A DNA stretch of 64,000 nucleotides from Candidatus Latescibacterota bacterium. Lineage in GTDB: Bacteria; Latescibacterota; UBA2968. This document shows, one piece after another, positions 51,771-55,375 of the stretch (within the stretch, counting starts at the first letter, position 1; every line of letters begins with the position of its first letter). The notes below the pieces were generated by a model. That model was given only the letters and a program-made list of their open reading frames with translations. It searched no databases and was not told the DNA's origin. The position numbers and the translations under genes are program-made. The stretch is from assembly GCA_965204375.1 (NCBI GenBank), contig OZ241986.1:608001-672000 (forward strand), given 5' to 3'.

Positions 51771-51887
51771 CAGTTTTGCGTCGGGGATTATGTATTATAG
51801 TGCCGAGAACATAATCCACATAATCCCACAATAAAAAAGCTGGCTACTCACTGATAAAGAAGCGGCCAGCTTTTCCTCTAAAATGAT

Positions 51888-52364
51888 TTAGGTACTGCCT
51901 TTTATTCTACGTTGCATCATTCTTCTTTTTCTGTAATATTCCGGGTTATATTTGCTTCCATCAGCCTTTTGTGGTGTTTGTGTCTTGGGCCTCACAGGAC
52001 CTTTAGACCCAAACCATTCTGACAGCTTATCTTTCGCCAGATTCGCTGTTTCAGCCGTCATATATGCTCTGGCAAGACCCAAAGCTGTTGCTAAAACTCC
52101 CGCATCATCTCCATACCCAACCAGAGGTGTCATATCAGGGACCGCATCTATTGGGATAATAAAGTATGCTAAGGCACTATAAATCGCGGTTTTTACCGTG
52201 ATCGGTGTTCCTTCTTGCTTTGCGGTATAGTAAAGCTCTAGCGATTTTTTAACAACTGCCCTACCCGCGGTAGTAGCTTGATTAGACAGTTTATCCCAAA
52301 ATCCACGCTCCGTGTACTTCTCTGGCTCTGGTAACGAGGGACTCTTACGATTTCCGCTTTGCAT
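51888..52364 (-). CDS. YkvA/DUF1232 membrane protein with basic C-terminal tail
   Basis: FWDKL, ALAYFIIPIDAVPD..GYGDD; GGAGG RBS before ATG 52364. Confidence 0.85.
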   Translation of the reverse strand: MQSGNRKSPSLPEPEKYTERGFWDKLSNQATTAGRAVVKKSLELYYTAKQEGTPITVKTAIYSALAYFIIPIDAVPDMTPLVGYGDDAGVLATALGLARAYMTAETANLAKDKLSEWFGSKGPVRPKTQTPQKADGSKYNPEYYRKRRMMQRRIKGST

Positions 52365-52422
52365 CTCTACCTCCGGTGTGAGTGTTAGCCCATAATCCGG
52401 CACCCCGGTTTGGGTGCCGGGC

Positions 52423-52561
52423 GGTATCAACACTCGCGCAGTAGAGATGCGGGAAGTCCTACTTATTTACCAAGGCTTGGGGAGCTACCCCTCGCCTATG
52501 TGATTGGTTATTGTATTCGGCAGGCCACCCGACATACGGGCACCGCACGAGCGTTGATACC
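52423..52561 (-). ncRNA. Candidate structured RNA, copy 1 (139 nt)
   Basis: 20-bp closing stem with G-U pairs on the minus strand, inner hairpins, promoter directly upstream. Confidence 0.65.
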
Positions 52562-52564
52562 TGT

Positions 52565-52593
52565 ATGATACAATAGCCTTTTCTGTAAGTCAA
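52565..52593 (-). promoter_or_regulatory. Sigma70-type promoter for RNA copy 1
   Basis: TTGACT-17 nt-TATCAT. Confidence 0.7.
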
Positions 52594-52747
52594 AACATAA
52601 ATCCCTATCTAATCTGATTGACGGGTTTTGTGTTGTACAACACGAGGGGCACATGTTGCCTGCCATAGTTTGACATTTGATTCTGGAAATCCTATTTTGT
52701 TACTTTGAAATAGGCAAGGCATGCGCTGATTCTAAAAGAAGATAAAG

Positions 52748-53236
52748 ATGGCTAAGGGCGACCATATTTGTGTAAGTAGAGGACTCTACTGGCATCATGG
52801 AATTGATCTCGGAAATGGCCGAGTCATACACTATACGGGGTACCCTGGGGATAAGGGCAGAAATGCCGCTATTAAAGTTGAAAGTATCCAAAAATTTGCC
52901 AAAGGAAGGGAAATTTACTACGGAGACTCTAAAGCGCAATATTCGCATGATGAAATTGTGAGGCGTGCCGAAGGTCGGATTGGTGAAGAGGACTACGATA
53001 TCGTCGGCAACAATTGCGAACATTTTGTGAACTGGTGCAGAACTGGCCGACATAAGAGCCAGCAAGTCAATACGGCGGCGGCTTTGGTTACACCTGCTGC
53101 ACCTTACGCGTACCTTAAACAGAAATTCGGTGCTCCGACACCTCCGGCACCACAAAAGGCTGACGGCAGTAAATATAATGCGGAATATTACAGAAGAAAA
53201 AGAATGATGCAACGCAGAATAAAGGGTAGCACCTAA
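52748..53236 (+). CDS. LRAT-like (permuted NlpC/P60) protein with basic C-terminal tail
   Basis: KGDHI, YWHHGI..G.VIHY, NNCEHF. Confidence 0.88.
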   Translation: MAKGDHICVSRGLYWHHGIDLGNGRVIHYTGYPGDKGRNAAIKVESIQKFAKGREIYYGDSKAQYSHDEIVRRAEGRIGEEDYDIVGNNCEHFVNWCRTGRHKSQQVNTAAALVTPAAPYAYLKQKFGAPTPPAPQKADGSKYNAEYYRRKRMMQRRIKGST

Positions 53237-53642
53237 ATCATTTAATCGGTCGATTTTTTTTATGAATGAGTGTCTAAATGGAGGCAGAAATACATTTTTC
53301 AGGGCCTGTTTTTGGGCGTATTTGCACAAAAAAACGCCAATTTGCGGGCCTGGGTACACTGAAAAAGGGCAATTTAGGGGCTTTTTACAATATTCGAGGC
53401 GAGCAAGGCGTAGTCTGTTTTTGTGTTGGAAGGCGCTGAACAGCCATAAATGGGTCAGGTAAAGGAAAAAAACAGCGTTTCTGTGGTGACATGGTAGCAA
53501 AAGGGCGTGTTTTTGCTCAAAATGCCCCGCATGCGGTTCCGCCCTCAGTGTGTCATCCTGCCCAAGTAAGCGGACATGTTGGGTGCAAAAGCCCGTCGAT
53601 CGTTCTGATTAACGGGCTTTTGTGTTGTACTCGAGGCGGGTT

Positions 53643-54335
53643 TTACCGCCCTTTTTCCCATATTGCGTTATAGGCGGGGCTGGTGTTCGTGAACTCTGTT
53701 GTCAGGCTTATCCTGCCTTTTCCGAGGGTCTCCACAACGATTAACAGCTTTACCTCGGTCACATTATCCGGGAAAGGTTTTCCCCCCAATCCTCTCATGT
53801 CTTTCCATTCGGATATGAACGCCTGACCGTCGTAATTCAAAAACCGCCTTGTCCAATCCTCTGGCGAGTCCCAAGCGTTGGTATTAAATGACCGCTGCAT
53901 CCGGTAGCCGCCTGAGCTGTACCGCTCGGCCAGTTGCTTTTTGATTGCCTGGTATTTAGGCATGATATTCTCGCCACCATTCCCCACGTCCATTTCATCC
54001 GACCAGGCCCACAGCTTAAAAAGCCCGTGATCGGGCGTGAAATATAGCCGAAAGAGGGTAAAGTCAGCCTCTTTCGGCTCCTCAGAAAAGAGGCCGGAAA
54101 ACAGATCGAGGGCTGATTTTTCCGGGGGTGTATCAGCCAGTTTAAGTATAATGGAGCGTCGATAGCCCACCGAGTCAATGTCTGTTATCTCGAAGCCTTT
54201 GAGGGCCTTAACTTCATCAAAAGGCATCCCCATATAGAACTCAAAGGAATAGACGCCGGGCGGTTTTGTCTGGGCGGTCGCTGATGCGACAAGTAGCACC
54301 AGTGAGGTCAATAGTGTGCGGGTTAAAGTCAACAT
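53643..54335 (-). CDS. Secreted hypothetical protein
   Basis: Signal peptide MLTLTRTLLTSLVLLVASATA-Q; AAGGAG RBS. Confidence 0.65.
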   Translation of the reverse strand: MLTLTRTLLTSLVLLVASATAQTKPPGVYSFEFYMGMPFDEVKALKGFEITDIDSVGYRRSIILKLADTPPEKSALDLFSGLFSEEPKEADFTLFRLYFTPDHGLFKLWAWSDEMDVGNGGENIMPKYQAIKKQLAERYSSGGYRMQRSFNTNAWDSPEDWTRRFLNYDGQAFISEWKDMRGLGGKPFPDNVTEVKLLIVVETLGKGRISLTTEFTNTSPAYNAIWEKGR

Positions 54336-54370
54336 GTGTTGCTCCTTTGTGTTGGGTGGTGAGTACACAC

Positions 54371-54405
54371 AAAAAGCACCTGGAAACACGCGCTCCAGGT
54401 GCTTT
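54371..54405 (-). terminator. Terminator-like hairpin in the leader of 53643..54335
   Basis: Minus strand AAAGCACCTGGA...TCCAGGTGCTTTTT. Confidence 0.6.
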
Positions 54406-54512
54406 CTATTTTTCCCAAATAGTCTTGAAAAACTTCTACAGTTTTCGCGTGGACTTTTCGCATGGTGGACTTTCTGCGAGGTGGTTGTGGCACTCAAAAT
54501 TGAGTGCCGGGC

Positions 54513-54651
54513 ACAGTCCACCGTCACGCAGAAAGATGCGATTAAGCCCTGCCTGTTTACCCTAGATCGGGGAGCTACCCGTCACCGTTAATGGGCTATT
54601 GTATTCAGCAGGCTACCCGACAAAACGGGTATCTGCCTGACAATGGACTGT
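54513..54651 (-). ncRNA. Candidate structured RNA, copy 2 (139 nt)
   Basis: Same architecture as copy 1 with a different but pairing closing stem. Confidence 0.65.
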
Positions 54652-54655
54652 TGCC

Positions 54656-54684
54656 AGAATACAACCACAGGCAGGGGGTGTCAA
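54656..54684 (-). promoter_or_regulatory. Sigma70-type promoter for RNA copy 2
   Basis: TTGACA-17 nt-TATTCT. Confidence 0.7.
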
Positions 54685-54692
54685 TATAAATA

Positions 54693-55022
54693 TCACGTAT
54701 CGAACCAACCGACCATTTGCTCAGCGGCTTGCTTTTTCGCCTTTGGTGTGATGTGCATTGCAATAGCGGCGACTGTGCTGATCAGTACGCCGAGGTCGTC
54801 TGTGAACCCGAACACTGGCGTTGGGTCAGGTATGGCATCAATGGGCGATATGAAATAGGCCAGTGCCGCGAAAACTGTGGCCTTCGCCCACTTGGGCGTA
54901 TCCTTTGATTCGGCAGTGTAATACAGCCATAGAGCTTTTTCAATCACATCGCGGCCAGCTTTGCGAGCGAATGTTTTGATCTTCTGCCAGAAATCGGCCT
55001 CGCTAAAATCCTTGTCGGCCAT
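54693..55022 (-). CDS. YkvA/DUF1232 protein without the tail
   Basis: FWQKIK, ALAYFISPIDAIPD..GFTDD; GGAG before ATG 55022. Confidence 0.85.
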   Translation of the reverse strand: MADKDFSEADFWQKIKTFARKAGRDVIEKALWLYYTAESKDTPKWAKATVFAALAYFISPIDAIPDPTPVFGFTDDLGVLISTVAAIAMHITPKAKKQAAEQMVGWFDT

Positions 55023-55153
55023 ATACGGTCTCCATCGAAAAATCCCACAGCTTAAAGTTCTGTGGGGTAGTTGAACGGACCTTGCTCTTGTCCGCAAGGG
55101 GGGAATGAGGCGATTCAGCAATGCGGTGCTTAAATCGCTTCTGTGGGCGTCTG

Positions 55154-55375
55154 TCAGGGGAGTCCGATACTTTCCGAAAATTCCAGTGGGGCGTTGTCGG
55201 CCCTGACCAACTGGCCAGTGAGGTACTGCTCCAAGATGGAACGGATGACAGTGTTTCGAGTATCCCACGAGTTACCGGCGGCGCGGTCGAGACGTACAAC
55301 GATACCGCGCGGGATTTTTGCAGCAACAATCATCAGCTCCCTTTTTGGCGGCGGCTTTCCGTTGGATTTGCTCAT
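55154..55375 (-). CDS. Ribbon-helix-helix-like protein
   Basis: IVAAKIPRGIVVRLD...TRNTVIRSILEQYL. Confidence 0.6.
   Translation of the reverse strand: MSKSNGKPPPKRELMIVAAKIPRGIVVRLDRAAGNSWDTRNTVIRSILEQYLTGQLVRADNAPLEFSESIGLP

Follow-up and report, generated by a model that had tools for sequence, protein, structure and literature searches.

A widespread, uncatalogued folded leader RNA, probably with two alternative folds, in the genome of a Latescibacterota bacterium

The C4 RNA of the phages P1 and P7 (RF01695 and RF03163, clan CL00128) is known for RNase P processing and action in trans (PMC5320573 and, reportedly, Hartmann 1995). In the P1 record the elements follow the order promoter, a1, b1, c4 RNA, a2, b2 and icd. 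According to PMC5320573, RNase P matures C4 by acting at the 5' end of the closing stem, and the loops of C4 bind mRNA at the ribosome-binding site (RBS). A second structured RNA, sRNA-Xcc1 (RF02221), is borne by integrons, genomic islands and phages, in Xanthomonas, Xylella and the APSE phages. Its authors reportedly call it trans-acting. It is mapped as an 88-nt RNA (PMC2996969), is found in multiple copies and sometimes in tandem arrays in Xylella (PMC12189769), and lies directly upstream of symE in integron cassettes (bioRxiv 10.1101/2025.06.18.660453). For Brt1-9 of Bartonella henselae, trans action plus a cis riboswitch-like element is the hypothesis of the authors (Tu et al. 2016, PMC5387305). 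Here we describe two copies of a leader RNA in a 64-kb stretch (hereafter the window: 64,000 nucleotides, positions 608,001 to 672,000 of contig OZ241986.1) of a Candidatus Latescibacterota bacterium, copy 1 in front of a DUF1232 gene and copy 2 in front of a gene for a secreted-looking protein (Table 1). They have a common core of about 150 nt, and all leader features of both lie on the minus strand. The genome holds eight copies: copies 1 and 2 in the window, copy 3 at locus L009, copies 4 and 5 at L011 and L012, copies 6 and 7 in tandem at L133, and copy 8 at L134. They belong to a family that is a widespread, uncatalogued folded leader RNA. We hold, with moderate confidence, that every copy heads its own transcript as a 5' leader, an RNA of the phage P1 c4/sRNA-Xcc1 kind predicted to adopt two mutually exclusive folds.

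A pattern derived from the most conserved stretch of the RNA, scanned over contigs of one genome per species, matched at least 117 places. By their record titles, the matches listed belong to at least eight phylum-level groups and come from both metagenome-assembled genomes (MAGs) and isolates; among them are Latescibacterota, Binatia, Gemmatimonadota/Longimicrobiales, Acidobacteriota, Alpha- and Gammaproteobacteria, Dehalococcoidia (Chloroflexota), Nitrospirales (Nitrospirota) and Limisphaerales (Verrucomicrobiota). A covariance model built from five copies of the present genome was then searched against 100 sources, namely the window, L009, L011 and 97 of the 117 loci (L112-L131 being left out), and gave 104 matches plus one antisense artefact. 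The same model detected the RNA in 27 of 30 relatives, at 1-9 copies apiece. Comparison of the whole window with Rfam at gathering thresholds gave no matches, the scan of the window for tRNA and tmRNA genes found none, and a distant-mode blastn search with the copy 1 RNA gave no match in the phage and plasmid collections. One locus in IMG/VR (L014) matched the pattern and was set aside by eye, its flanks being unlike those of the leader family; the model search was not applied to it. In the literature on sRNA-Xcc1, c4-a1b1 and structured or leader RNAs of Latescibacteria, no published description of the leader family was found. In a Parvibaculaceae MAG (L056, 66-657), four tandem short-form copies lie within about 600 nt, an array reminiscent of the five sRNA-Xcc1 homologues that PMC12189769 describes in tandem in a genomic island of Xylella.

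The structure of the leader RNA is real. A closing stem of 16-19 bp, P0 (5' strand P0a, 3' strand P0b), encloses the core, and a long-range helix of 9 bp, PK, joins GUCGGGUnn inside the closing stem (strand PKa) to nnGCCCGRC just 3' of it (strand PKb); both helices covary. In a structure alignment of 105 rows (102 distinct), 92.4% of the cells are paired versus 66.9% with shuffled and 33-44% with slid partners, and changes on both sides are found in 30 of 33 pairs overall and in all 18 modelled pairs of P0 (102 distinct sequences), figures that come from an alignment fitted to the model, which favours pairing. Despite this fitting, the closing-stem sequences are unrelated between copies. PK reaches at least 8 bp in 102 of the 104 model matches. 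When it was tested by position in 85 non-redundant sequences, anchored solely on its six invariant pairs, positions 8 and 9 were paired in 98% and 86% versus 61% and 49% after shuffling, and the helix ended sharply, position 10 being paired in 8%. PK and P0 overlap or abut, and because they cross, a pseudoknot results if both form.

Wider statistics were drawn from 86 non-redundant leaders chosen out of 102, after removal of near-duplicates, of leaders with less than 120 nt of downstream sequence and of two with aberrant spacing. Each strand of PK has a local decoy: an upstream CCCG (hairpin P2) pairs with PKa in the minimum free energy (MFE) structure of 79/86 leaders, and a comparable downstream hairpin (HP) takes up PKb in 64/86. 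Each window copy has its own sigma-70-like promoter, ending a few bases before the closing stem, and TTGAC stands at -35..-32 of the stem start in 34/86 leaders, versus 1.9% of control windows.

An earlier note on this locus, made from the letters alone, had claimed that a segment of each RNA is the exact complement of a segment downstream, and both complementarities are confirmed. In copy 1, GCAUCUCUAC (52450..52441) is exactly reverse-complementary to GUAGAGAUGC, which follows GGAGG and contains the AUG of the DUF1232 gene; the 10-mer has only two sites in the entire window on either strand, a number reached in 2/100 shuffles (mean, 0.15 matches). In copy 2, CUUUCUGCG complements CGCAGAAAG exactly, and this 9-mer has three matches in the window versus 0.67 expected. 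Both pairings are parts of longer interrupted helices absent from the note: the copy 1 helix is extended by GAGUGUU with AACACUC, and that of copy 2 by GGUGG with CCACC and by UCGCAU with AUGCGA. The junction (J) plus the 3' stem strand was also paired in silico with the downstream 150 nt and compared with 100 dinucleotide shuffles. The duplex energies correspond to z = -2.9 for copy 1 and -5.4 for copy 3 (0/100 shuffles as good in both), and to z = -2.7 for both copy 2 and copy 4 (1/100 each). The note had further supposed that the pairings compete with the inner end of the closing stem. This stands insofar as the alternative pairing uses nucleotides of the covarying P0; in the 10-mer of copy 1, however, only the last base, C52441, belongs to the stem, and the remainder is the junction 5' of the stem's 3' strand. 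Behind copy 2, the hairpin with a U run and the 44-codon open reading frame (ORF; 54463..54329) that the note described are both present; our terminator scan missed the hairpin, whose loop of more than 8 nt is too long for it. The ORF was rejected as conserved coding sequence: its protein is not conserved in the closest homologue, in which the ORF from the same AUG has 32 codons and is unrelated beyond MRK. Its AUG is better explained as part of AUGCG, the conserved complement of the junction box CGCAU.

The alternative helix, J:anti-J, recurs in all eight copies of the genome as a contiguous complement of 8-11 bp, located within 27-70 nt after PKb and differing in sequence from copy to copy. 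The junction box, CGCAU or CGCAG, lies just 5' of the 3' strand of the closing stem. Examples of the pairs are GCAUCUCUAC:GUAGAGAUGC, GCAUCUCUCU:GGAGAGAUGC, CGCAUUUC:GAAAUGCG, UUCCCGCAGU:ACUGCGGGAA and CGCGUUUCUAU:AUAGAAAUGCG. A compensatory change is seen between CGCAU:AUGCG (copies 1, 3, 4 and 8) and CGCAG:CUGCG (copy 7), i.e., from U:A to G:C, and in a copy-1-like leader before a different gene, by hand reading, the downstream GGGAGGGAUGCG pairs with its own J. The anti-J segment overlaps the Shine-Dalgarno sequence (SD) and AUG in copies 1 and 3, and is directly followed by U5-8 in copies 4-8. Among relatives, 16 of the 20 fetched loci could be parsed, and the junction helix has at least 8 bp in nine of these copies (p <=0.056 in five). 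By eye, bulged helices with a U run immediately after them are present at L138, L140, L141 and L152; in three variants resembling copy 2 (L148, L150 and L151), hand reading indicates that the complement CCACC...GCGGGAAG is kept against a changed junction.

The two folds may be pictured as follows. In Fold I, the closing stem P0a:P0b would form, with PKa held in the small local hairpin and PKb in HP; the downstream complement would be free, leaving the SD and AUG open (copies 1 and 3) or making no terminator hairpin (copies 4-8), and the gene would be ON. In Fold II, P0b and J would pair with the downstream complement, which imitates P0a, so that the SD and AUG would be buried or a long hairpin ending directly at the U run would be built, and the gene would be OFF; PKa:PKb could then form an acceptor-stem-like helix followed by RCC. 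When P0a was barred from pairing in a folding check, the MFE structure of every copy in the genome became a long hairpin closed by J:anti-J. In copies 4-8 this hairpin ends at U5-8, as in an attenuator; in copies 1 and 3 it covers the SD and AUG and there is no U run, and the terminator of copy 2 is separate from the switch region. The switch of translation or attenuation proposed in the earlier note agrees with where the complement ends, on the SD/AUG or before a U run, except in copy 2, where the pairing misses the canonical terminator. The energies of the two folds are -77.6 vs -77.8 kcal/mol for copy 3, -70.9 vs -72.0 for copy 6 and -75.9 vs -71.5 for copy 7; across the copies the two states are 0-15 kcal/mol apart, and the nearly identical copies 4 and 5 have different folds as MFE. 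As far as models go, comparative and folding evidence supports an expression platform here.

In the wide family the signal is partial. Over the 86 leaders the mean z of the duplex is -0.94, and no more than 5/100 shuffles are as good in 22/86, versus about five expected. By the same measure, 18 leaders are significant (about three expected) among the 54 that have an SD and a start codon no more than 80 nt away, and in 17 of these 18 the SD is covered by the duplex. With P0 enforced in constrained folding, the RBS is more open in 40/54 leaders (means, 0.48 vs 0.39). A simple scan for a hairpin plus U run lists 14/86 leaders, only a few of them judged convincing, but it misses long-range hairpins such as that of copy 4. 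The earlier expectation that homologues keep the complementarity is thus borne out in the eight copies of this genome and in a part of the other leaders, not in all; from these counts, J:anti-J is clear in the lineage of the window and partial elsewhere.

Several observations weigh against two exclusive folds. In nested-structure models, which ignore the pseudoknot, the median stability advantage of Fold I is 8.6 kcal/mol, the gap being 11-15 kcal/mol for copies 1, 2 and 4; as Fold I is also the first to form in transcription, Fold II needs a trigger, for which a cut by RNase P where PKa begins at its 5' end (as in C4), a processed copy pairing with P0a in trans, or a ligand would be candidates. 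The alternative helix of copy 2 sits neither at the RBS nor at the terminator. For the contiguous helix, per-copy shuffle p ranges from 0.007 to 0.26 and is weak for copies 2 (0.09), 4 (0.23), 5 (0.26) and 6 (0.17), 36/54 leaders are no better than shuffles, and the RBS opening changes by at least 0.2 in only 9/54. Cognate duplexes average -25.5 kcal/mol versus -22.6 for non-cognate ones, i.e., 2.9 better (standard deviation, 5.3), a modest separation that is likely due to the family consensus shared by the closing stems, and more weight was hence placed on the shuffles and the comparison of paralogues.

The same figures could be taken to mean that there is no switch at all: the RNA would have one functional fold, the complement would be the 3' half of its own terminal helix or terminator, or chance, and the downstream gene would be unaffected. 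The weak per-copy statistics, for helices of 8-9 bp with G-U pairs allowed, the 36 leaders without significance and the ordinary terminator behind copy 2 are in line with this. We consider it very unlikely, however, for a complement to the equivalent segment is present in 8/8 copies (Fisher combination of the p values of seven independent copies, by hand, about 1e-4) and is placed on the SD/start codon or directly before a U run. Moreover, P0 covaries strongly and uses the nucleotides of the alternative helix, and therefore the two helices cannot share one fold.

Another explanation is a c4-type antisense RNA acting mainly in trans, in which the complementarity marks a target site and not an intramolecular switch. 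RNase P would cut at the 5' end of PKa and leave a stable RNA of about 120 nt, whose J/P0b would bind the complements on other transcripts as a'/b' of c4 bind a2/b2, while P0a, like a1/b1, would serve only as a part of the precursor or as a decoy. P1 has the identical layout, and ACC follows the C4 closing stem as it follows PKb here. In C4, according to PMC5320573, RNase P cuts at the 5' end of the P1 stem and loop b' occludes the RBS. Sequence hints of an RNase P type are a 9-bp helix starting with a G:C pair, NCC after PKb in 59/86 leaders (RCC in 50/86) and U before PKa in 41/86. In a 4 x 4 comparison within this genome, the own RNA is the best binder of each downstream site. But orthogonality is weak, J/P0b of copy 2 binding all four sites about equally, and the C4 and c4-a1b1 models of Rfam gave no match at E up to 10 in 51800-55300, although the same search found both in P1 (68.8 and 51 bits). 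Furthermore, the U run directly after anti-J in copies 4-8 fits an intramolecular terminator hairpin and not a trans target. Taken together, we regard action mainly in trans as unlikely. In the a1/b1 region of P1 (L132, 48230-48311), a sub-threshold match to isrK (35.1 bits vs a cut-off of 50) overlaps the c4-a1b1 match, which hints that isrK-type RNAs are a1b1-like upstream elements.

A bolder version of the two-fold leader would combine these elements into a one-way genetic switch licensed by RNase P, borne on mobile DNA in at least eight bacterial phyla and producing a self-limiting pulse of expression of surface or secreted proteins. PK with its RCC tail would be a mimic of the tRNA acceptor, and cleavage there would remove P0a permanently; the junction and P0b would then clamp the RBS or complete the terminator, and the released, processed RNA would pair with P0a of new transcripts, imposing the same fold on them. 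C4 and sRNA-Xcc1 would be reduced members of one superfamily. We think this quite unlikely in its entirety.

As to the genes served, 73/86 leaders have an SD and start codon, at a median distance of 51 nt downstream of PKb; by eye, most N-termini of the encoded proteins resemble signal peptides or lipoproteins. In the present genome, the downstream genes encode a DUF1232 protein (copy 1), a secreted-looking protein of 230 aa (copy 2) and secreted-looking proteins of 378 aa (copies 4 and 5), whereas copy 3 is followed by a tiny ORF and later by a lipoprotein gene. These genes bear on another rival, a small-molecule or ion riboswitch, in which the invariant core (the loop GAAUACAA//GAAUAG, GUCGGGU and GGGUAGCUCCC) would be an aptamer and the ligand would stabilize P0 or PK and in this way select the fold. 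A core highly conserved across phyla with varying stems is in line with such a system, and translational as well as terminator-type platforms behind one core are typical of it, but the downstream genes (signal-peptide- or lipoprotein-like, DUF1232, tiny ORFs) have no common metabolic theme, and there are up to nine copies per genome, in the present one within an island of genes of the mobile-element and defence type. The relatives c4 and sRNA-Xcc1 are not known to be ligand binders. The chance that the leader is a riboswitch of this kind is slim.

The tiny ORF directly after the copy-3-type leader (L009:1694-1717; also in L135, L136 and L139) encodes a peptide kept in four genomes with synonymous differences (MFKNTFA*, MFKNVFT*, MFMFKNAFT* and MFMFKNTFT*); its SD is inside the junction complement GGAGAGAUGC, and the AUG follows after 2-3 nt. 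Copies 4 (G000:C1:6229288-6229439) and 5 (6243985-6244136) are nearly identical, 14.7 kb apart and each before a gene for a homologous secreted-looking protein, which points to a recent segmental duplication.

Table 1. Leader features and adjoining genes at the two copies in the window (positions are those of the window)
Feature	Position	Strand	Remarks
Copy 1: promoter-like site TTGACT-17-TATCAT	52565..52593	-	10/12 consensus positions; ends 4 nt before the closing stem
Copy 1: P0a, closing stem 5' strand	52543..52561	-	18-bp duplex with P0b, -30.3 kcal/mol
Copy 1: PKa GUCGGGUGG	52525..52533	-	Partner is the upstream CCCG (local hairpin P2) or PKb
Copy 1: conserved core	52458..52524	-	P3 (CCUGC/GUAGG), internal loop GAAUACAA//AAAUAA, P3a, P4 with loop GGGGUAGCUCCCC; the portion aligning to the sRNA-Xcc1 model, supported by alignments and pair counts
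Copy 1: junction J ACUUCCCGCAUCUCUA	52442..52457	-	Contains the segment of the earlier note and the family box CGCAU
Copy 1: P0b, closing stem 3' strand	52423..52441	-	GAGUGUU 52434..52428 can pair with 52386..52380 instead
Copy 1: PKb CCGCCCGGC, then ACC	52413..52424	-	2 nt in common with P0b, 5 nt with hairpin HP
Copy 1: hairpin HP (CCGGCACCC/GGGUGCCGG)	52397..52420	-	3' strand imitates PKa; no U run after it
Copy 1: anti-region	52361..52386	-	AACACUC 52386..52380, SD GGAGG 52374..52370, GUAGAGAUGC 52370..52361, AUG 52364..52362
DUF1232 gene 3' of copy 1	51888..52364	-	Pfam PF06803, E = 3.1e-12
Copy 2: promoter-like site TTGACA-17-TATTCT	54656..54684	-	10/12 consensus positions
Copy 2: P0a	54631..54651	-	17-bp duplex with P0b, -30.7 kcal/mol; sequence unrelated to the copy 1 stem
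Copy 2: PKa (54621..54613) and core through P3 3' strand (54552..54548)	54548..54621	-	Alignments
Copy 2: junction J (54547..54532, with UCGCAU) and P0b (54531..54513)	54513..54547	-	CUUUCUGCG is 54535..54527
Copy 2: PKb UGCCCGGC (54513..54506) and HP (GGCACUCA/UGAGUGCC, 54508..54489)	54489..54513	-	
Copy 2: anti-region	54458..54484	-	CCACC 54484..54480, CGCAGAAAG 54478..54470, AUGCGA 54463..54458
Canonical hairpin and U run between copy 2 and the next gene	54371..54406	-	-18.9 kcal/mol, then UUUUU
Gene for 230-aa protein 3' of copy 2	53643..54335	-	Signal-peptide-like N-terminus, no Pfam family

The window copies sit among mobile-element and defence-type genes (39665-63334), which include PAPS-reductase-like, helicase, HATPase_c_3, PLD-like, MTase-HNH fusion, HEPN-like, Rad52-like, RadC, PIN and AbiC-like genes. 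The end of another DUF1232 gene (54693-55022) lies 9 nt ahead of the copy 2 promoter. The divergent genes for the DUF1232 protein and an LRAT-family protein are flanked by an inverted repeat of 96 nt (51881-51976 and 53148-53243; 89% complementary), which encodes nearly the same C-terminal tail on both proteins (…PQKADGSKYN.EYYR.(K/R)RMMQRRIKGST); the repeat could stem from gene conversion, from a targeting tail that both have in common, or from a segment that can invert. A 16-mer, GTACAACACAAAAsCC (minus strand), occurs both upstream of the copy 1 promoter (52623-52638) and at the terminator hairpin of the secreted-protein gene (53615-53630), and its recurrence suggests that modules of leader, gene and terminator have been duplicated or recombined.

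If the two-fold leader is true, a design known in detail only from the immunity region of phages P1 and P7 becomes a large multi-copy leader family, one that fronts genes for membrane proteins, lipoproteins and secreted proteins in many lineages that are uncultured. sRNA-Xcc1, for which no mechanism is established, would gain one that is concrete and open to testing. The leader, in which two covarying helices compete, is also a model for pseudoknot-based switching, and since cultured carriers (Komagataeibacter and Gluconacetobacter isolates) are among the matches, the model can be tested at the bench.

Compared with C4, the order of the elements is the same, P0a standing for a1 and b1 and the anti-region for a2 and b2 on either side of the core, with the gene following; J/P0b has a complement in P0a as well as in the anti-region, so that an upstream and a downstream site exist here as in C4. 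The antisense element a' has the same place in both systems, in the junction immediately ahead of the closing stem's 3' strand, and ACC follows the stem in both. Unlike in C4, the upstream element here forms a continuous covarying stem of 16-19 bp with which PK makes a pseudoknot, a U run terminates many copies, and membrane or secreted proteins, not an antirepressor, are encoded downstream. sRNA-Xcc1 is the sole Rfam family with a full-length sub-threshold match (model positions 1-87 aligned), scoring 27.7 bits for copy 1, 17.1 for copy 2, 28.6 for copy 3 and 25.5 for copies 4 and 5, versus a gathering threshold of 53; in 20 homologous loci the best score is 40.7 bits, and none reaches 53. 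The leader has the sRNA-Xcc1 layout, i.e., a three-way junction, a G/C-rich closing stem plus ACC(C) and an AAUACAA internal loop in the first arm. PK corresponds to its P1, the AAUACAA/GAAUA internal loop and trailing ACC(C) are common to both, and both are multi-copy, sometimes tandem, and directly upstream of a gene. However, the leader family has a distal arm larger by 20-50 nt, the extra stem P0 and the downstream anti-region. sRNA-Xcc1 is an independent transcript of about 88 nt whose 5' end is at the closing stem; the putative promoter here lies about 30 nt further upstream, before P0a.

Brt1-9, likened here by description (PMC5387305), are also multi-copy structured RNAs of about 200 nt, each directly upstream of a poorly transcribed gene, but their downstream genes encode XRE-type regulators and they are reported to be genus-specific. 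As in riboswitches, a conserved, covarying, sensor-like domain in the 5' leader precedes a putative alternative-pairing platform, the 3' strand of the closing stem takes part in two alternative helices, and terminator and SD-masking versions go with one core; the genes without a metabolic theme and a core carrying an acceptor-stem-like pseudoknot helix with RCC set it apart. No curated family threshold is reached, and therefore the RNA is not filed as a member of C4 or sRNA-Xcc1. In short, its best name is a two-state leader of the c4/sRNA-Xcc1 kind.

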